Assembly: GCA_965287045.1 (NCBI GenBank)
Contig: OZ336870.1
Coordinates: forward strand, 84,382,001 to 84,446,000
From: Carcharhinus amblyrhynchos
Taxonomy: Eukaryota
Direction of reading: 5' to 3'
Length of the DNA stretch: 64,000 nt
In this document: positions 4,001-48,924 of the stretch, piece after piece
Layout: the number at the start of each line of letters is the position of its first letter
How positions within the stretch are numbered: position 1 is the first letter of the stretch
Notes under the pieces: model-generated
Databases searched by the model: none
What the model was told of the DNA's origin: nothing
The model's input: only the letters and a program-made list of their open reading frames with translations
Made by a program: the position numbers and the translations under genes

Positions 4001-6630
4001 GCAGAACTAGGACTTTCAACTAAGCCAAGGGCTCAGGAGGGGTTAGTAAAGTTTTCAAACCACGTAAGAGAGCAGACAGTACAGAAGGTGGCAGGAATCT
4101 AACCTCAGGCAGAGCAAAAAAGGTGACAAGTATGAGAAGGGAGGTGGTCAATGCAAGGCTGAGGGTGTTGTACCTAAATGCGCACAGTATATGGAACAAG
4201 GTAAATGAACTTGTTGCCTACATTGAAATTAGCCTGTACGATGTTGTGGGCATCACAGAAACGTGGCTGCAAGGGGATCAGGGCTGGGATCTAAATATCC
4301 AAGGATATGTGTCCTATCAGAAGGACAGGCAGATGGGCAAAGGGGACGGGCTGCATTGTTAGTAAGGAATTGAAGTAAGTTTAAATCGATAGAAAGAAGC
4401 GATATAGGAACAGAAAGCACAGAATCTCTCTGAGTAGAGTCGAGGAATCGCAAAGGTAAAAAGACCCTGATGGGAATTATATACAGGTCCCCTAGCAGTA
4501 GTCAGGATGTGGGGCAGAAAATAAATCAGGAGTTAGAAAAGGCAATATGACAATAATCATGGGGGACTTCAATATGCAGGTGGACTGAAAAAAATATCAG
4601 GGAGAGAGTGGATCCCAAGAAAAGGAACTTGTGGAATGTGTAAGAGATGCTTTTTGCAGCAGCCTGTGACAGAGCCCACTAGGGAACAGGCAATTCTGGA
4701 TTTGATGATTTGCAATGAGGTTGACTTGATTAGGGTACTTGAGGTGGAGAAACCCTTAGGGAGCAGTGGCCACAATATGATGGAATTTACCTTGCAGTTT
4801 GAGAGGGAGAAGCTAGAATCAGATGTAATGGTATCACAATTAAATAAAAGTTACTACAAGGACATGAGGGAGGAGCTGGCCAGTGTTGGTTGGAAAGGGA
4901 GCCTAGCAGGGAAGACAATAGAAAGCAATGGCAGGAGTTTTTGAGGGTTATTCGAGAGGCACAACAGAAACTCATCCCAAGGAGGAGGAAACATGCTAAG
5001 GGGAGGATGAGGCATCCATAACTGATGAGGGAAGTCAAGGAAAGCATAAAAGCAAAAGAAAAAGCATACAAGGCGGTGAGGATTAGTGGGAAGCTAAAGG
5101 ATTGGGAAGTCTTTAAAAGTGAACAGAGGACAACCAAAAAAGCACTTAGGGGGGAGAAGATGAAATATGAGTGTAAGCTAGCTAGTAATATAAAAGAAGA
5201 TAGGAAGAAGTTCTTTCAATATATAAAAAGAAAGAAAGAGGCAAAAATAGATAATGGACCACTGGAAAATAACGCTGGAAAAGTAATAATAGGAAACAAA
5301 GAAATGGCAGAGGAACTGAATAGTTACTTTGCATCAGTCTTCACGGTGGAAGACACCAGTGGGTTGCCAGACCTTCAGGAAAATCAGGGGACACAGTGAG
5401 TATAAAGGCCATCGCTAAGGATAAGGTTCTGGGGAAACTGAAAGGTCTGAAGGTGGATAATTCACCTGGTCTGGATAGACTGCACCCCAGAGTTCTAAAA
5501 GAGATAGCTGAGGAAATTGTGGAGGCATTCGTGGTGATCTTTCAGGAATCACTGGAGGCAGGGAGGGTCCCAGAGGACTGGAAAGTTGCTGATGTAACAT
5601 CACTATTTAAGAAGGGAAGGAGGCAGCACATGGGAAATTTCTAGGCCTGTTAGCCTGGCTTCAATCACTTGCAAGATTTCAGAGTTCATTATTAAAGATG
5701 AGTTTGCAGAGTGCTTGGAAGTGTGTGATAAAATAGGAGTGAGTCAGCACAGCTTTGTCAAGGGGAAGTCATGTCTGTCAAATCTGTTAGAGTTCTTTAA
5801 GGAGGTAACAAGGAAGTTAGACAAAGGAGAACCAGTGGATAGGATATATTTAGATTTCCAAAAGGCCTTTGACAAAGTGCCACATAAAAGACCGTTAAAT
5901 AAGTTAACAGCCCATGGTGCTAAGGGTAAGATCCTGGCATGGATAGAGGATTGGTTGACTGGTAGAAAGCAGAGAATGGGGACAAAGAGGTATTTTTCAT
6001 GACAGCTGGTGACTAGTGGTGTGCCGGGACCACAACTTTTCACAATATACATTAATGATTTGGAAGAAGGAACTGTTGCTAAGTTAGCAAATGATACAAA
6101 GACTAGAGGGACAGCTAGTCTTGAGGAGGCGGTGGGGGGGGGGAAGGCTGCAGAAGGACTTGGACAAGTTAGGAGAGTGAGCAAATAAGTGGCAGATGGA
6201 ATGTAATGTGGAAAAGAATGAGGTTATGCACTTTGGAAGGAGGAATGAAGGCATAGACTATTTTCTAAATGGGGAAATGCTTAGGAAATCAGAAACACAA
6301 ACGGACTTGAGTCCTTGTTCAAGATTCTCTTAAGGGCTAACGTGCAGGTTCAGTGGGCAGTTAAGAAGACAAATGCAATGTTAGCATTCATGTCGAGACA
6401 GTTAGAAAACAACAGCAGGAATGTACTTCTGAGGCTGTATAAGGTGTGGAGGCCAGGCCACTGAGTGTCTTTAAGACAGAGATAGATAGGTTCTTGATTA
6501 ATAAGAGTATCAGGGGTTATGGAGAAAAGACAGGAGAATGGGGATGAGTAAAATATCAGCCAGGATTGATGGCGGAGCAGACTTGATGGGCCAAGTGGTC
6601 TTATTCTGCTCCTATGTCTTATGGGCTTAT
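4001..6630 (+). mobile_element. CR1/HER1-type LINE, degenerate ORF2 (AP endonuclease + reverse transcriptase) with internal deletion near 6445 and 3' UTR
   Basis: ORF pieces LYLNAHSI...VVGITETWL (EN), AILDLMICN...LGSSGHNM, PGLDRLHPRVLKE...VPEDWK, GKSCLSNLLEFF...YLDFQKAFDKVPH (RT); stops and frameshifts; tail cctatgtcttatg. Confidence 0.93.
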
Positions 6631-7750: not shown

Positions 7751-8103
7751 TGTTCATCCTGAGTACCCTCATCATTAGATGTGCCCTGGGAGGTTTGGAG
7801 ATCTGTTGGACTGACTGACTGGCTGGCCATGATTGCTTATGCTTGCAAAATACAAATGGACAGTGTTTGCGGATAAAGCTGATACAGAATTTGTAGCACT
7901 CAGTGTGAATTGCAGGAATTGGCAATGCAATGGCGCTGAGATCTTTAACAAATTGTTGTGGGGGACTAAGCTCGGACTCCCCACAGGACCGATCCTGGTC
8001 CTCGCCACTGAGCTCTGCAGCAGCCTCCTCGCACTTGGTGGGGGCAGTAAGCTTTGCCATTGCTCCTCATGCATAGGCTAGCTCAAGTTTGTTATGGAAA
8101 CAA

Positions 8104-8310
8104 CATGAGGTGGAGATGCTGACGTTGGACTGGGGTGGGCACAATGTCTCACAATACCAGGTTAAAGTCCAACAGGTTTATTTGACATCATGAGCTTTCA
8201 GAGTGCTGCTCCTTCATCAGGTGAGTGGACTGAAGGAGCAGTGCTTGGAAAGTTTGTGATTCCAAACAAACCTGTTGGACTTTCATCTGCTGTTGTGGGA
8301 CTTCTTACTA
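8104..8310. mobile_element. Palindromic Penelope-derived short element (copy 1)
   Basis: Same leader and inverted arms as 47858..48068; minus-strand core TCAC-CTGATGA-A-GGAG..CTCT-GAAA-GC-TC-ATGA at 8188..8224. Confidence 0.7.
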
Positions 8311-8789
8311 TGAAGACAACAGAAAGAGATGTGATGAAAGGGAACGGAGCCGAGATTGGGTGAAATGCATGTGTGTGATGAGCTTCCCCAGGAAGGACAG
8401 AGTTTGGATTTTCAGCAAAAAGACAGATGGGATAGTGGTGATGTGAAATTCTTGTTGATGGAGTAAGTATTGATATGTGTCCCCCACAACGGAATGTGAG
8501 AGCGCTATGGATAGTATAGCTGTTTGAGTACATGATGTCATGCTGAGAGAGAGGAGGGAATTGAGAAATGACTTTACCTTGGGAGAGCAGTTGAGATCAT
8601 TCATCTGCTTCCTGCACTGGGTGGTACTTCTCAAGTGGGTGGCAGCCACACTGACACCCTGGGCAATGGCCTTCCAGGCCAGTGATGTGTGCTTTCTCGA
8701 GCCAACCCCTAGTTAGAGGATATGCCAGCGCTCCCTGAATAAGGACCTCAAGGCCTCTGGTGCTGATGGCTGTGTTGCCTTCTTATTGA

Positions 8790-9024: not shown

Positions 9025-9366
9025 AGGGTGGCATAGTAGCACATGGTTAGCACTGGTGCTTCACAGCTTCAGGGACCTGGGTTCGATTCCCGGCTTGGGT
9101 CACCGTCTGTGTGGAGTTTGCACATTCTCCTTGTTTCTGCATGGGTTTCCTCCGGGTGCTTTGCTTTCTTCCCACAGTCCAAAGATGTGTGGGTTAAGTT
9201 GATTGGCCATGCTAAAATTGCCCCTCAGTGTCCTGAGGTCCGTAGGTTAGAGGGATTAGTGGGTAATTATGTAGGGATAGGGGGGTAGGGCCTGGGTGGG
9301 ATTGTGGTCAGTGCAGACTCGATGGGCCAAATGACCTCTTTCTGCACTGTATGATTTCTATGATTT
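9025..9366 (+). mobile_element. HE1-like V-SINE, full length
   Basis: Pol III A box (tagcacatggttag), B box (ggttcgattcc), V core, CR1-derived tail ending tatgatttctatg. Confidence 0.92.
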
Positions 9367-9634
9367 AATGAGGTTCCAGATGTGTAATTTGGAGCTGGAT
9401 CCTGCCATTCTTACATAGAAACCAGCAGGAAAGATTCCATGAGAGCCACCCACCCTCACACTTAATCTCAAAATGGGAGAATTCCACCCTTTGTATCTAA
9501 TATAACTGAGACAGTAAGTTATTCTGAATGTGTTATTAGAAGCAATTTTTATCAGAAGAATCAACAACCAGAAAAATTACCTCAATTCCACATATCTGAA
9601 GTTAAAGTTTGTTTTAAAGATGATTTTTTTTATA

Positions 9635-9983
9635 GGGCGGCACGGTAGCACAGTGGCTAGCACTGCTGCTTCACAGCTCCAGGGACCTGGGTTTGATTCC
9701 CGGCTTGGGTCACTGTCTGTATGGAGTTTGCACAGTCTCCTCATGTGTGCGTGGGTTTCCTCCAGGTGCTTTGCTTTCCTCCCACAGTCTAAAGATGTGT
9801 GGGTTAGGTTGATTGGCCATGATAAAATTGCCCCTCAGTGTCCTGAGATGCGTAGGTTAGAGGGATTAGTGGGTAAGTATGTAGAGATATGGGGGTGGGG
9901 CCTGGGTGGGATTGCGGTCAGTACAGACTCAATGGACCAAATGGCCTCTTTCTGTACTGTAGGGTTTCTATGATGATTTCTAT
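9635..9983 (+). mobile_element. HE1-like V-SINE, full length
   Basis: Highly similar to 9025..9366 throughout. Confidence 0.92.
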
Positions 9984-21913: not shown

Positions 21914-22608
21914 TGTAGTTGAAGTGCCTGTGTTCATTTAAGATTGGGACTTTGAAACTTCTGCTAGGGCCAGACAAGAGACATCTAGGGAAGGATTGTG
22001 AGCCCACTGTGTCATGCTGGAAGCACAATAAGAAGTCTCACAACACCAGGTTAAAGTCCAACAGGTTTATTTGTCACAAACACCACTAGCTTTTGGAACT
22101 GACTGTTCCTCCATCAGGTGGGTGGGAGTATTCCTGATGAAGAATTAGCCAGTTCCAAAAGCTAGTGGCGTTTGCTACAAATAAACTGTTGGACTTTAAC
22201 CTAGTGTTGTGAGACTTCTTACTATGTTTACCCCAGTCCAACGCTGGCATCTCCACATCATGCTGGAAGTACAGTGAGGTAACTGCAAGCATTTAAATGG
22301 TCTTATCTTATCTGGCGCAGGGCCATTGCAAAAAGGGGATAAAGAAAGGGCCGAGAGAGGCATCATTTCTGCAATTGGGCAAGTATGACCTGGTCAGTCA
22401 TTCAGAAGTCATGCACAGAGAAGCTGTCAGCAGATCGATCATCTGAGGTGAACTCTACCACTCTGGAACACCAGCAACAGGTATTGTGAAGATGTGCTAC
22501 TGCTTAGTTGTGTAATAAAAGGTACACCATATACAGTAACCAAGTTATTGTGAGTCATTGATACCCAGAATAAAAATGTGAACTCTTAGATCTAGTAAGA
22601 CTTCTACA
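21914..22608 (+). mobile_element. Probable old solo LTR containing the Penelope-derived palindrome
   Basis: TGTAG...CTACA ends, AATAAA ~22514; TSD only 3/5 (gaaac/ggatc). Confidence 0.4.
22022..22262. mobile_element. Palindromic Penelope-derived short element (copy 2, opposite orientation)
   Basis: taagaagtctcacaacaccaggttaaagtccaacag... / ...ctgttggactttaacctagtgttgtgagacttctta inverted arms, leader reverse-complemented at the right end. Confidence 0.7.
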
Positions 22609-26223: not shown

Positions 26224-26402
26224 ATTATTCTGTAATGGTAGTAGCAACTATGGTAGTCTTCCCATTTTCCCTTCTCAACCATTCTTCAGTGTTTAATATG
26301 GCGTTGATCTTATAACATCCTCCTATGCCTCCCCTCCATCATCCAGCAATTTAGGATTGCACTTGCATGCACTATTCCTATTTGATTGTAGCATGTTCAC
26401 CT

Positions 26403-28040
26403 CAAAGAACAAAGAAAAATACAGCAAAAGAACAGGCCCCTCAGCACTCCAAGCCTAAACCAATCATGATGCCCTAACTAAATAAAAAAAACCTTCTGTC
26501 CTTACTCAGTCCATATTCCTTTATTTCTTCCCTGTTCATGTGCCCATCCAGATGCCTCTTAAGTGTTGCTAGTGTGCTTGCTTCCATCACCTCCTCTGGC
26601 AGCATGTTCCAGGCACTCACCACTCTCTGCATGAAAAGTTTTCCCCGCATATCTCCTTTAAAATTTCCCGTCCCACTCACCTTGAACCTATGTCCCCTTG
26701 TAATTGATACTTCCACCTTTGGAAAAAGCCTCTGACTATCTACCTTATCTATGCCTCTCATAATTTTGTAGCCCTCTATCAGGTCTCCCTTCAGCCTCTG
26801 TCTTTCCAGTAAAAACAATCCTAGTTTATTCAACCTCTCATCATAGCCAACACCCTGAAGACTGGACAACATCCTAGTGAACATTTTTTGCACCCTTTTC
26901 AAAGCTTCCATGTCCTTCTAAAAGTGTGGTGACCAGAACTGCATGCAATACTCCAAATGTTGCCTAACCAAGGTTTTATATAGCTGCAATATGATTTCCC
27001 CAACTCTTGTACTCAGTGTCCTGGCTGATTAAGGCAAGTATGCCAAATGCCTTCTTAATCACCTTGGCCATCTGTGTTGCCACTTTTTGGGAACTTAGGA
27101 CCAACGCGCTCAGATCCCTCAGTATGTTAATTTTCCTAAATTTCCTTAATTCACCTAAATTTGATTCACCAAAATGCATCACCTCATATTTTTTCCCAGA
27201 TTAAACTCCATCTGCCATTTCTGTGCCCCATTCTCCAATCTATTTATAGTATGTGGTATCCTGTGACAATACCCGGAACTATCAGCAACTTCACCAATCT
27301 TTGTGTCATCCACAAACTTGCTGATTAGACAACCCACATTTTCCATCAGGTCATGTATATATATCACAGCCAATAGAGGTCCCAGCATTGATCCCTACAG
27401 AACATCACTAGCTATAGTTCTCCATTCTTAAAAGCACCCTTCCATCACTACTCTCTAGCTTCTATAACCAAGCCAGTTTGTATCCATCTAGCCTGTTCAC
27501 TCTGATTCCCATGTGATTTTAGTTTTTGTACCAGTCTGCCAAGTGGGACCTTGTCAAATGCCTTACTAAAGCCCAGAAAACCTATATGAACTAGATCCAC
27601 AGCCCTTCTCCCGTCAATTATCTTTGTCACCTCTTCAAAAAACTCAATCAAGTTGGTGAGACTTGACCTCCCTACACAAAACTATGCTGCCTGTCATCAA
27701 CTAGTCCATTTTCTTCCAAATGTGCATATATCCTGCCCCTTAGTATCTTCTCCAAAAGCTTCTCACCACTGATGTCAAGCTTATCGGTTTATAATTTTCT
27801 AGATTACCCCTTCTTCCTTTCTTAAACAATGGAACAACATGGGCTATTTCCCAGTCCTCTGAAACCTTGCCTGTGGTCAAAAAGGATATGAATATATCTG
27901 GTAAGGCCCCAGCTATTTCTCCCCTTGCCTCCTGCAGTAACCTGGGATAGATTCCATGTGGCCCCAGGGATTGTCCACCTTAATGGATAACCTGGGGTAG
28001 ATCCCAACCCACCCTGGGGAATTGTCTACCTAACCATCTG
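26403..28040 (-). mobile_element. CR1 LINE, 5'-truncated (RT + C-terminus + tail)
   Basis: IEFFEEVTK...FSKAFDKVP, LGPLL...KFVDDTKIG, ALKRVQKMFTRM...WNMLPEEV. Confidence 0.92.
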
Positions 28041-28051
28041 CCATCTATTTT

Positions 28052-29088
28052 CAAAGAACAAAGAAAATTACAGCACAGGAACAGGCATTTTGGCCCTCCA
28101 AGCCTGCACCGACCGTGCTGCGCAACTTAACTAAAACCCCCTATCCTTTTGGGGATCATATCCCTCTATTCCTATTCTATTCATGTACTTGTCAAGACGC
28201 CCCTTAAAAGTCACTACTGTCTCCGCTGCCACTACCTCTCCCGGCAACAAGTTCCAGGCACCCACTAGTCCCTGTGTAAAAAATCTGCCTTGTACATCTC
28301 CTTTAAATCTTGTCCCTCGCACCTTAAACCTATGCTCCCAGTAATTGACTCTTCCACCTGGGAAAAAGCTTCTGACTATCCATTCTGTCCATGCCTCTCA
28401 TAATCTTGTAGACTTCTATCAGGTGTTCCCTCAACCTCCTTCGCTCCAGTGAGAACAAACCAAGTTTCTCCAATCTCTCCTCAAAGCTAATGCTCTCCAT
28501 ACCAGGAACCATCCCGTTAAACCTTTTCTGTACCGTCTCCAAAGCCGCCACATCCTTCTGGTAGTGTGGCAACCAGAATTGAACACTATATTCCAAGTGC
28601 GGCCTAAGGTTCTATAAACCTGCAACATGACTTGCCAATTTTTAAACACATTGCCCCGACTGATGAAGGCAAACATGCTGTATTCCTTCTTAACTGCCTT
28701 CTCCACCTGCATTGCCACTTTCAGTGACCTGTGTACCTGTTAACCCAGATCCCTTTGCCTATCAATACTCTTAAGGGTTCTGCCATTTAATGTATATTTC
28801 CTGTCTGTATTAGACCTTCCAAAATGCATTACCTCACATTTGTCCAGATTAAACTCCATCTACCATCTCTCTGCCCAAGTCTCCAACTGATCTATATCCT
28901 GCTGTATCCTCTGATGGTCCGCAAATCCACCAATCTTTGTATCATCCACAAACGTACTAACCAATCCAGTTACATTTTCCTCCAAATCATTTACATATGT
29001 TACAAACAGCAAAGGTCCCAGCACTGATCCCTGAGGAACATCACTTGTCACAGCTCTCCATTCAGAAACATATCCTTCCACTGCTACC
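28052..29088 (-). mobile_element. CR1 LINE, 5'-truncated, tandem to previous copy
   Basis: VPQGSVLGPLLF...FVDDTKIGG, EYSVQFWLPHYQKDV, WNLLPGEV. Confidence 0.92.
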
Positions 29089-34201: not shown

Positions 34202-35113
<912 letters not shown>

Positions 35114-38989: not shown

Positions 38990-39420
38990 AATCTCAGCCT
39001 GCAGAATCAGCTGTACGGTGGGATCTCTGACTTGAGGCATTACCTTACCACATTGTGGTTGGGATGTGTGACATGAGGTATTGCCATACCACATTGTAAA
39101 ACCAGCCAGCAAGGTTTCCAACCAAGCATGGGTGGCTGTGGTCAGCATTAATCTCTTTCAGAAGAGGACAGCTATCCAATGCAGGAAGAGGATGAATGAT
39201 CTCTTCCGTTCTGCCAGGGTAAATTCACTCTTCTCATCACTCTCACCTCACACACCTATCAGACATTCACAGAGATCTCACCCACCACCAATTCAAGGGA
39301 CCTCACCATTCACTGTCCCACAGACATCTTCATTCCTCTATGGTTTGTGTTCTCATCACCTCACTGTTCCCATTCACCACCCACACAGGCTAAGCATCCT
39401 TATCATCTGCTCTGGCGGCT
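38990..39420 (+). mobile_element. PIF/Harbinger Myb/SANT-like ORF remnant
   Basis: SNQAWVAVVSINLFQKRTAIQCRKRMNDLFRSAR|gtaaat; same motif and donor position as 8575..8685. Confidence 0.6.
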
Positions 39421-40794: not shown

Positions 40795-40831
40795 TTCTCC
40801 TAACTTAACTGACTTTCAGCATTTTTATTTA

Positions 40832-42800
40832 TCCATTTTTTATTCATTCAGATAATGTAAGCATTGCTGACCAGACCAGAATTAATGGCCTTAATGCTGT
40901 TGAGAAAGTTTGGGGGAGGGGGAATAGTCTTGAGCCACTGAAGTCCTGATGCTGCACATGGGTACACCTAGAGAGTTATTAGAGAGAAACTTCTGGGATT
41001 GTGAACCAGTAACAGTGAAGTAATGGCAAAATATTTCTAATCAGGATCAGAGTGGTGAGTAACTTGTAGGTGGTGGTTCATATAAGCATCTGCAGCCCTT
41101 GTTCTTCAAGATGGTGCAGAGCATAGGTTTGGAAAGTCTTACTGAAGAATTTTTGACAAGTTGCTGGGGTGCATCTTGCAGATGGTACACACTCCTGTCA
41201 CTGTGTACCATCTGCAAGATGCACCCCAGCAACTTGTCAAAAATTCTTCAGTAAGACTTTCCAAACCTATGCTCTGCACCATCTTGAAGAACAAGGGCTG
41301 CAGATGCTTATATGAACCACCACCTACAAGTTACTCACCACTCTGATCCTGATTAGAAATATTTTGCCATTACTTCACTGTTACTGGTTCACAATCCCAG
41401 AAGTTTCTCTCTAATAACTCTCTAGGTGTACCCATGTGCAGCATCAGGACTTCAGTGGCTCAAGACTATTCCCCCTCCCCCAAACTTTCTCAACAGCATT
41501 AAGGCCATTAATTCTGGTCTGGTCAGCAATGCTTACATTATCTGAATGAATAATGGCAGTGGAGGAAATGAATGGTTAAAGAGGTGAATGAGGTGCCAAT
41601 AAAGAGAACTGCTTTATCCTGGATGGTATCAAACTTCTTGAAATTTTTGAGGCGAGTGAAGAGTATTCCATCTGACTCCTGACTTGTGCCTTGTAGATGG
41701 TGGACCGGCTTGAAGGAGTCAGGCGTTGAGTTACTTATCATAGAATTGCCTGCCTCTTGTCTGCTCATGTGGACACTATGTTTATATGGCTAGTTCAGTA
41801 AAGTTTCTGGTCAATAGTAATGTCCAGGATGTTGAGGCTGGTGGATTCACTAATGATAATGTTGAATGTTAAAGGGAGATGGTTAGAATCTCTCTTATAG
41901 GAAATGGTTATTGTCTGGCGCTTGTGCGGCTTAACTGTTAATTGCCACCTAACACAAGCCAGAATGTTGTCCAGGTCTCCCTGCATATGGACGTAGGCTG
42001 CTTCATTATCTGAGGAGCTGCAAGTTGTGCTGAACATTGTGCAATTATCAGCAATCCTGCTTTTCATCCTATGATGGAGACAAGGTAATTTATAAAACCA
42101 TTGAAAATGGTTGGGCCCAGGCCACTGTTTGAGGAATTTCTACAATGAGTGCTGCAGACGAGAAGGTTCACATCCAGCATTCACTACCATCTTCTTTTGT
42201 GCTATGTATGATTTCAACATTACTCACACTTTCAATTCCCATTAACTTCAGTATCATTTGGGGTCCTTGATCTAAACTTGGTCAAATCCGACCTTGATGT
42301 CAAAGACAGTCTCACCTTATTTCTGGGATCTGCTGTTAAGTCCATGTTTGGACCAAAGCCATAATGAGCTCTGAAGCCGAGTAGCCCTGGTAGAACTAAA
42401 CTGGACATTGGTGAGCAGCTTATTGCATTGATAACATTGCCAATGACCCCTTACATCACTTTGCTGATGACTGTGAGTAAATTGATGGGATGGCATCTGG
42501 CTAGATTGGATTAGTCCTGACTTGTGTGGCCAGAACATGCAAAGATGATTTTTCATATTTTTTGGTAGGTGCCAGTGCTGCAGTTGTACTGGAACAGCTT
42601 GGCTAGGAACTAGCTAATACTAAAGCATAATTCTTCAGCACTACACCCAGGGTTTAAATGGAGCCGATAGCCCTTTTATGACCAGTTGTAGTTTAATATC
42701 ACATGCAGTGAATTGAATTAGTTGAAGGTTGGCATCTCTGATGTTGGGGATCTAAGGGGAGACTACAATGGATCATTCATTTGGCACTTCCAGCATTGTA
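40832..42800 (-). mobile_element. Second-family LINE (CR1/L2 group), 5'-truncated, containing the palindrome
   Basis: Minus strand ADNCTMF (ADD motif), QGDLDNILA, WQLTVKPHK, KFDTIQDKA, IHFLH; 3' tail tgaatgaataaaaa. Confidence 0.85.
40840..41553. repeat. Perfect inverted repeat: 352-bp arms (40840..41191 / 41202..41553), 10-nt spacer
   Basis: Arms are exact reverse complements as read by eye; spacer CTCCTGTCAC; mirrored ORFs 41047..41232(-) and 41161..41346(+). Confidence 0.97.
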
Positions 42801-42824
42801 TTTTGCACCATTGAAACTATTTGA

Positions 42825-43000
42825 CTGTTCCTTCACTGTCACTAGGTCATAAATCTGGAACTCCTTCCCTAACAGCTCTGTATGTATTTACATGTGGACT
42901 ACAGCATTTCAAGAAGCCAGATCACACTACCTTTTAAGGACAAATAGCGATGGCAAATAAAAACGCCAGTAATGGCCACATCCTGTGAATGAATAAAAAC
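42825..43000 (+). mobile_element. Second-family LINE 3' end
   Basis: ttccttcactgtcactaggtc...ggaactcc...cacatcctgtgaatgaataaaaa. Confidence 0.7.
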
Positions 43001-47857: not shown

Positions 47858-48068
47858 GGATGTAGAGATGCCGGTGTTGGATTGGGGTGGGCATAATAAG
47901 AAACCTCACAACATCAGGTTAAAGTACAACAGGTTTATTTGGAATCACAAGCTTTCAGGGTGCTGCTCCTTCATCAGATGAGTTCACCTGATGAAGGGGC
48001 AGTGCTCCGAAAGCTCGTGATTCGAAATAAACCTGTTGGACTTTAACCTGGTGCTGTGAGACTTTTCA
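47858..48068. mobile_element. Palindromic Penelope-derived short element (copy 3)
   Basis: gatgtagagatgccggtgttgg... leader, then inverted arms (caggttaaagtacaacaggtttattt / aaataaacctgttggactttaacctg) enclosing two opposed hammerhead-like cores. Confidence 0.7.
47984..48020 (+). ncRNA. Minimal type-I hammerhead ribozyme-like motif (Penelope-type)
   Basis: TCAC-CTGATGA-A-GGGGC-AGT-GCTCC-GAAA-GC-TC-GTGA: stem I TCAC/GTGA, core CUGAUGA plus extra A, stem II, GAAA, palindromic AGCT in place of stem III, UC cleavage site. Confidence 0.6.
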
Positions 48069-48924
48069 CTGAAGGCAATGGTCCCTGATAATGTTCCAAC
48101 AATAGTACTGAGGACTTGAGCTCCAGTACTTGCTGCCCCCTAACCAAGCTGTTCCAGTACACTTACAATATTGGCAACTCCTCTACAATGTGGAAAATTG
48201 CCCAGAAATGTCCTGTACACAAGAAACAGGACAAATGCAACCCGATTTAATTACCACCCCATCAGTCTACTCTCGATCAGCAGAAAAATGATGAAAGGAA
48301 TCATCAACAGTGCTATAAAGCAGTACTTAATCAATGATAACCTGCCCACTGACCCTTAGTTTGGGTTCCACCAGGGTCACTCAGCTTCTGGCCTCATTAT
48401 AGCCTTGGTTTAAACATGGTCAAAAGAGCTGAATTCCAGAGGTGAGGTGAAAGTAACAGCCCTTAACATCAAGGCAGCATTTGACCAAGTATGGCATTAA
48501 GGAGCCCCAGCAAATCTGGAGTCAATGGGAATTAGGGGGAAAAGTCTCCATTGGTTGGAGTCATACCTGGCATAAAGAAAAATGGTTGTGGTCATTGGAG
48601 ATCGATCATCTCAGTTCCAGGACATTGCTGCAGGACTTCTTCAGGGAGGTGTTCTAGGCCCAACTATCTTCAGCTGTTGATCTGTTGGAGGCCTCCGGAG
48701 GAAGTTGTGATGGATCACCCACTCAGTATTTCTGGCTGAATGTTTCTTCACTGGGTCAAAAACCTGGAATTTTCTCCCTAACAGCACACTTGGTGTCTCT
48801 ACACTTCAGGGACTGCTATGGTTCAAGAAGGCAGCTCCCCACCATCTTTTGAAGGACAACTAGGGATGGGCAATAAATGCTTGCGTAGCCAGTGATACCC
48901 ACATCCCATTTTTAAAAAATCAGA

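Follow-up and report, generated by a model that had tools for sequence, protein, structure and literature searches.

A perfect 714-base palindrome at a shark KCTD8 locus, probably formed by a local fold-back inverted insertion

How did a decayed retroelement copy in the genome of Carcharhinus amblyrhynchos come to contain a perfect palindrome of 714 bases? The palindrome lies at 40840-41553 of the window, by which we mean the whole 64,000-nt stretch analysed (contig OZ336870.1), which contains no N. It consists of two arms of 352 nt each, 100% complementary, around a 10-nt spacer, as a sequence-only reading of this DNA had claimed. Our analysis points to a real, single-event local fold-back inverted insertion, an origin that we consider likely from the assembled sequence. 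The palindrome looks like a real, large and clean member of a known mutation class and not like a new system. The features to which the text refers are as follows.

34256..35063, + strand: first coding exon of KCTD8, with BTB and H1 domains
40821..40844, - strand: AT-rich element tail where the copy would end, the lowest-melting duplex in the 1.5 kb left of the fold
40840..41191, - strand: left arm, in which a decayed non-LTR retroelement, its sense strand minus, has its original 3' end; presumed template of the copy
41186..41207, + strand: seed hairpin and putative fold-back primer, in which 41186-41191 pairs with 41202-41207 across the loop in a stem of no more than 6 bp
41192..41201, no strand: loop of 10 nt, single-copy and genomic, probably host-element sequence
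41208..41552 (equivalently 41206-41550 or 41207-41551), + strand: inserted inverted copy, 345 nt
41551..41553, + strand: exit junction, a 3-bp TAA microhomology
41554..42600, - strand: upstream body of the host element, an ORF2 reverse-transcriptase region disrupted by stops and frameshifts

The insert was the reverse complement of the directly upstream sequence in 345/345 nt, and together with the stem it makes up the right arm at 41202-41553. Arm identity was complete up to a sharp outer edge. Within the 64-kb window, the next-longest exact inverted match at any spacing measured 29 bp, the runner-up perfect inverted repeat with a spacer below 60 nt measured 19 bp, and the longest exact direct repeat measured 42 bp. 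The window held 63 other repeat pairs of at least 100 bp, with a top identity of 89.7%. Three other 3' ends of the same family (12.7, 42.8 and 48.7 kb) matched the arm in 70.8, 65.4 and 64.6% of ungapped columns, and are thus clearly diverged, as had been noticed by eye. Because the arms are identical while the other copies are only 65-71% identical, they are explained by one local copy and not by two insertions, which bears out the earlier preference for a single fold-back copy. Inverted repeat pairs are plentiful in the window (88), which would favour a second family member having inserted independently in the opposite orientation; however, the chance of 352 straight matches would be 3e-55 at 70% identity and 2e-17 at 89.7%, and among the 25 inverted pairs listed the other 24 were 71-87% complementary. 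Both arms carry all the same decay, and we rule out such a double insertion, whose probability is negligible.

We assign the host to the non-LTR retroelements with an APE endonuclease, on the minus strand, with CR1, L2 or an allied group as its possible clade. A 114-residue piece of the element matched 20 proteins at E<=0.001 (best 8.8e-20, phmmer), the best of which aligned back at 35-57% identity (tblastn). Pfam detected RVT_1 in one of these matches and RVT_1 together with an APE-type endonuclease in a full-length relative; five stop-free pieces taken from the host element itself, which are too decayed, gave 0/5 significant matches. In the host, the ORF2 reverse transcriptase precedes a 3' end bearing an A-rich tail, and the minus-strand reading of the left arm aligned with the copies at 12.7, 42.8 and 48.7 kb right to that tail. 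The protein matches and the domains of the relatives support the proposed LINE host.

Several neighbouring sequences belong with this element. Past its tail on the minus strand, a second, similar A-rich block at 40813-40841 resembles a doubled tail or a target-site remnant. A separate 3' end of the host family (42810-42990, + strand) lies directly beyond the upstream end of the host element; it is 65% identical to the arms and can pair loosely with the left arm. A reverse-transcriptase fragment of the family at 48188-48677 (+ strand) is about 66% identical to 42102-42643 and inverted relative to it, and is accompanied by a family 3' end at 48737-48920.

The palindrome lies 5.8 kb downstream of a GTGAGT splice donor at 35064, which follows the first coding exon of KCTD8. 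The H1 domain matched KCTD8 at 246 bits, compared with 207 for KCTD16 and 202 for KCTD12 (PDB sequences, 4/4 matched). Exon 2 was not found in the window, where a weak test, Pfam on + strand ORFs of at least 120 aa past the donor, gave 0/9 matches; we know of no Pfam model for the C-terminal domain of KCTD8. We infer that the palindrome lies in KCTD8 intron 1, on the sense strand downstream of the donor. The gene named by the sequence-only reading thus stands on the best H1 match and the donor, and its intron is a probable placement, with exon 2 unlocated in the window. Rfam, tRNA and tandem-repeat scans gave nothing at the palindrome locus, and Rfam gave no match anywhere in the window. Tandem repetition of a 41-bp unit (1.9 copies, 84% matched) was observed at 39019-39097.

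The two junctions of the insert differ: the microhomology at the fold is inverted and longer, and that at the exit is shorter. The seed hairpin as DNA alone has a folding energy of -2.2 kcal/mol, and 6-bp stems of its kind occur at 4.1 per kb in the window. At the exit, the deletions 41206-41550, 41207-41551 and 41208-41552 yield an identical product, so the microhomology is 3 bp (TAA) and not the TA previously proposed. This microhomology is weak evidence, because at least 3 bp were available at 50/980 possible stop points for an exact return. A 5-bp microhomology located 4 nt beyond the exit was left unused, and no direct repeat longer than 3 bp flanks the inverted fragment. Copying took in 2 of the element tail's 6 A before ending, a stop that leaves the insert one base short of AATAAA on the KCTD8 sense strand. 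Omitting the remaining four A would lengthen the match by three bases (chance ~0.013), so that the exit may alternatively have involved slippage within the A run or a 6-bp pairing with a bulge. The stop falls in the AT-rich tail, where the 20-mer at 40824-40843 ranked 1 of 1485 by Tm and where all 5/1485 20-mers with at most 2 G+C start (40821-40825); this coincidence of low Tm and stop was noticed post hoc.

Removal of the 345 nt joins the element body to the left arm, and the joined sequence reads in frame. The loop likewise reads in frame with the ORF2-like residues of the left arm. For the join, we scored 91 join lengths against 7 distant ORF2 relatives; the relatives came from 9 longer distant proteins of a profile search (27-42% identity to its first sequence), with P0028 and P0029 omitted from the join test as more distant and without the anchor motif. 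In-frame joins reached a median score of 203.5 (n=20), compared with 178 and 190 for the out-of-frame joins (n=19 each) and 181 for the uncut sequence. The 345-nt join itself scored 198 and ranked 20/91, under most other in-frame joins. Rank-test p-values from this comparison lack independence, and we place no weight on them. In the 345 register, a conserved block from Leu to a basic residue aligned gap-free to the three closest relatives, and the Arg-Arg present in 7/7 relatives corresponded to His-Tyr, a change that needs at least 3 transitions at the junction. This His-Tyr can be explained by CpG decay; alternatively, the junction bases may have been templated, with a seed stem of 4-5 bp and a few original bases replaced.

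Other comparisons across the join gave no signal. A profile HMM of the relatives reached at most 6.7 bits there, and the junction halves aligned singly to the relatives scored 26-38, at noise level. Word-index searches with window peptides (4 and 20 candidates) returned no close ORF2 relative spanning the join, the 20 phmmer matches all stopped upstream of the junction (the nearest ends at 41603), and no other element copy within the window covers it. In prokaryotic genome contigs, scanned for stray element copies, 0/264 pattern matches were confirmed. These results support an ORF2 frame across the join, as judged by sequence comparison, and not the exact 345 register. The ORF2-collinear join claimed at the outset accordingly holds in part: the reading after removal of 345 nt is in frame and in-frame joins outscore the others, and the exact register, at rank 20/91, does not follow. 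With the same ranking, the stem at the fold is as it had been described, and the pre-existence of all its 6 pairs, the outer 2 in particular, and of the TAA is left without support. That synthesis returned with no sequence lost is likely true in length and unproven base by base, given His-Tyr in place of Arg-Arg.

We propose that a + strand 3' end, exposed near 41207, would have folded back on a 4-6-bp stem with the 10-nt loop, and that a polymerase, with the same strand as template, would have extended it by about 345 nt. Synthesis would have ended with release of the copy within the element's AT-rich tail (40821-40844), and the copy would have been joined at TAA to what originally came after the fold point. 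The route that we favour, which takes somewhat more than half of the weight placed on fold-back, would begin with a double-strand break at the fold point and proceed through resection, fold-back synthesis, unwinding and end-joining to the untouched other end. End-joining is favoured because an intact other end explains the return at the departure point without loss. The product would most likely be a neutral, structurally unstable variant, possibly polymorphic. We infer the order of events, the enzymes, the germline reality of the palindrome and its neutrality.

Replication could have produced the same fold-back insertion without a double-strand break, through an intra-strand template switch of the 3-2-1-4 type or an Okazaki 3' flap. 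This route takes somewhat less than half of the weight given to fold-back and, taken by itself, is a tentative possibility. It draws support from great apes, in which 3-2-1-4 events are a majority pattern yielding single inverted repeats (PMC7954356), from a two-switch palindrome expansion seen in rad27 yeast (PMC5677150) and from 3' flap fold-back with 6-bp junctions (PMC13334657). However, yeast switch events return variably, usually with a direct duplication (7 bp to >10 kb, median 148; PMC13334657), and others leave a deletion (PMC5677150), and under replication it would be a coincidence for synthesis to resume no more than 3 bp from where it departed. A single locus cannot separate the break route from a replication switch.

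Explanations outside fold-back insertion also have to account for the perfect arms. Perfect identity is what a library, amplification or assembly artefact would be expected to give, that is, a fold-back chimera carried into the consensus; fold-back reads constitute ~0.55-0.6% of ONT genomic reads (PMC12870357), and palindromes appeared in 12-50% of reads after whole-genome amplification (bioRxiv 10.1101/173872). Artefact reads as described there fold once and mirror to the read end, typically near the midpoint, and they are virtually absent from HiFi data (PMC12870357), whereas the palindrome in the assembled sequence has two junctions plus a return to the departure point. Its loop consists of 10 nt of single-copy sequence in the frame of the host element and is not an adapter remnant, and the 64 kb contain no second long exact repeat and so no hint of widespread chimeras. 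A lone chimeric molecule seldom wins the consensus. We regard an artefact as unlikely, although it deserves to be taken seriously. Considerably less probable is an old inverted duplication, arising for example by twin priming at insertion and homogenised by arm-to-arm conversion. Quasi-palindrome correction is known (PMC5677150, PMC7954356), private changes were found at 23/89 sites in the arm compared with 13-15 of 79-81 in the other copies, and the arm contained 0 CpG compared with 3 expected (p 0.046). Against this reading, homogenisation predicts blurred edges, and perhaps a GC bias, and the outer edge of identity is sharp; the changes show no GC-biased conversion signature (7 A/T-to-G/C compared with 11 opposite, both small numbers), and the GC content of the arm (42.3%) equals that of the flank (42.2%). 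Twin priming, moreover, inverts the 5' part of an insert and leaves the 3' tail unduplicated (bioRxiv 10.1101/2021.12.20.472354). We rejected a twin-priming 5' inversion of the LINE, as the element's 3' end is duplicated here and the arms share all decay.

The second arm could also be cDNA, made when the reverse transcriptase of an active LINE primed on this dead copy's transcript at its 3' tail, with the RNA still at the locus and a 5'-truncated, inverted retrocopy patching a break inside the same copy. The insert does resemble a retrocopy in that it starts in the 6-A tail of the element, is 5'-truncated and has microhomology at both ends, and the target strand ends in T residues able to pair with the tail. 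The truncation, however, lies 22 nt from the insertion site and coincides with a short inverted repeat, a placement that retrotransposition would not need but fold-back would. No duplex in the vicinity is weaker than the tail, and the stop is thereby accounted for by a DNA route; there is no target-site duplication, and 2/6 A were copied. We hold this origin, in both its parts, to be highly improbable, slightly more so than homogenisation. If it were true, dead LINE copies could convert themselves to perfect hairpins and seed dsRNA of the family's 3' end in host introns.

Returning to the fold-back insertion, we considered its age and stability. Zero differences in 345 bp correspond to a divergence of at most 0.87% (95%). 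At the mutation rate reported for the epaulette shark, 7e-10 per base per generation (PMC10587355), the age bound is 6.2 million generations (3.1-31 million over the published interval), and the arms would be expected to remain free of differences for a mean of about two million generations; at an illustrative rate of 1e-8 the bound is 0.43 million generations. A very recent origin, which had been read from the perfection of the arms, is therefore not required by identity that permits up to 0.87% divergence, and instability might imply one. In yeast, 100%-identical Alu pairs 12 bp apart rearranged ~15-fold more than 94% pairs and ~1000-fold more than 75% pairs (PMC10164571), and such inverted pairs stall forks in primate cells (review, PMC7999016). 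Persistence of the palindrome needs explaining because its geometry nears that of these rearrangement-prone pairs. Long palindromes are not unprecedented, because the human genome has been reported to contain 718 near-perfect spacerless palindromes >200 bp (review, PMC7999016).

The RNA of the palindrome was predicted to fold into a hairpin of -698.8 kcal/mol (z -59 relative to 20 shuffles), a score that is trivial given perfect arms; RNA of the same length without the second arm reached -202 kcal/mol. The long dsRNA hairpin anticipated by the sequence-only reading is thus a very stable, full-length fold in silico. If transcribed with KCTD8, it is predicted to form a nuclear dsRNA of 352 bp. 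Such dsRNA would more likely be edited by ADAR than diced, and the DNA cruciform suggested by the sequence-only reading would be a further hypothetical effect. The effect on KCTD8 is probably small, because the hairpin lies 5.8 kb from the donor, has no sense-strand AATAAA and sits in a region already hairpin-bearing at 47.9 kb.

Other repeats in the window were recorded alongside the palindrome, and the repeats overall may be of a shark or ray type. A degenerate palindromic repeat family of ~220-240 bp occurs at 8101-8319, 22023-22265 and 47859-48078 with 67-79% mutual identity, and each member folds to a long hairpin (-104 to -128 kcal/mol). The 47.9-kb member lies downstream of the KCTD8 donor and carries the motif CTGA-N-GA...GAAA on both arms (47953-47977 minus, 47988-48012 plus). 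The motif was also found at 8196-8220 (minus), and the pattern matched 5 other places too. It resembles a hammerhead-ribozyme core of Penelope-like elements; Rfam at gathering scores gave 0 matches for this hammerhead-like pattern in the window. Adjacent direct copies of a short interspersed repeat at 9025-9364 and 9634-9974 (89.7% over 341 columns) form the most similar long pair after the palindrome and may stem from an old duplication in place. Another family is represented by decayed reverse-transcriptase elements at 4537-6297 and 26402-29087, with RVT_1 at 5598-6002 (E 2.4e-11) and weak tblastn matches; within the latter element, 26402-27444 and 28051-29080 are direct copies, 70% identical.

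If real, the palindrome is an unusually long and legible natural fold-back insertion in which both junctions can be read. It would also have a 10-nt loop between identical arms of ~350 bp, a geometry strongly prone to rearrangement in yeast models (PMC10164571). Carriers across individuals and relatives would give directly the half-life of such a palindrome in a vertebrate germline. At a rate of 7e-10 (PMC10587355), perfect intronic hairpins could form a standing class in shark- or ray-like genomes. If the palindrome is an artefact, it is a useful quality flag for the assembly. Print searches, mostly outside subscription journals, for earlier descriptions of palindromes like this one in sharks or at KCTD8 gave one unrelated paper each.

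A close mechanistic parallel comes from fold-back inversions at yeast breaks, in which Pol delta extends a hairpin and the unwound copy joins the other end with 0-5 bp of microhomology (PMC11724301). These inversions use a 10-bp imperfect inverted microhomology and an exit of 0-5 bp (median 2), and their inserts are mostly about 5-34 bp, with a range of 10 to over 150 bp also given (PMC11724301). The palindrome resembles them in its inverted microhomology with a loop, its self-templated copy and its 0-5-bp exit (PMC11724301); it differs in the 345-nt length and in being a natural vertebrate locus, where break and enzymes are conjectural. Inverted insertions at meiotic breaks in the mouse germline measure 16-709 bp, with median microhomologies of 5 bp and 0 bp (bioRxiv 10.1101/2020.06.23.168138). 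The palindrome matches their size range and their pattern, in which one end has inverted microhomology and the other has little, if any, whereas the mouse insertions accompany kilobase hotspot-to-hotspot deletions, mostly in Atm-null animals, and no loss is apparent here (bioRxiv 10.1101/2020.06.23.168138).

Like 3-2-1-4 template switches, the palindrome would be a perfect inverted repeat made in one event, and an intra-strand geometry is possible (PMC7954356, PMC5677150). Human template-switch calls have a mean of 11.6 bp and a longest case of 318 bp (PMC7954356, PMC9435742), so that the copy here, with its reconstructed ancestral allele, is at or beyond the upper tail of the human lengths. 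Small inverted triplications in yeast (DUP/IN/DUP) have 6-bp junctions and inverted fragments with a median of 160 bp (PMC13334657). The palindrome shares with them a 6-bp inverted junction, an inverted fragment of a few hundred bases and putative fold-back priming, and differs in its flanking direct duplication, at most 3 bp here compared with at least 7 bp published (PMC13334657). We did not assign it to this class, its direct repeat of at most 3 bp falling below the published 7-bp minimum.

Intronic template-switch hairpins have given rise to new miRNA genes, with an optimum stem of ~35 bp (bioRxiv 10.1101/2023.04.19.537475), and long inverted repeats can yield siRNA (PMC8728187). The palindrome resembles such template-switch-born hairpin genes as an instant, perfect sense-strand hairpin past a splice donor; in contrast to miRNA hairpins, its 352-bp stem is ten times the ~35-bp optimum (bioRxiv 10.1101/2023.04.19.537475), and the hairpin is one predicted from DNA. 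It is also like the Alu fragile-site models, with identical arms of ~300-350 bp and a spacer of 10-12 bp (PMC10164571, PMC7999016). Those models were engineered, whereas the palindrome would be a natural carrier of that geometry (PMC10164571, PMC7999016).
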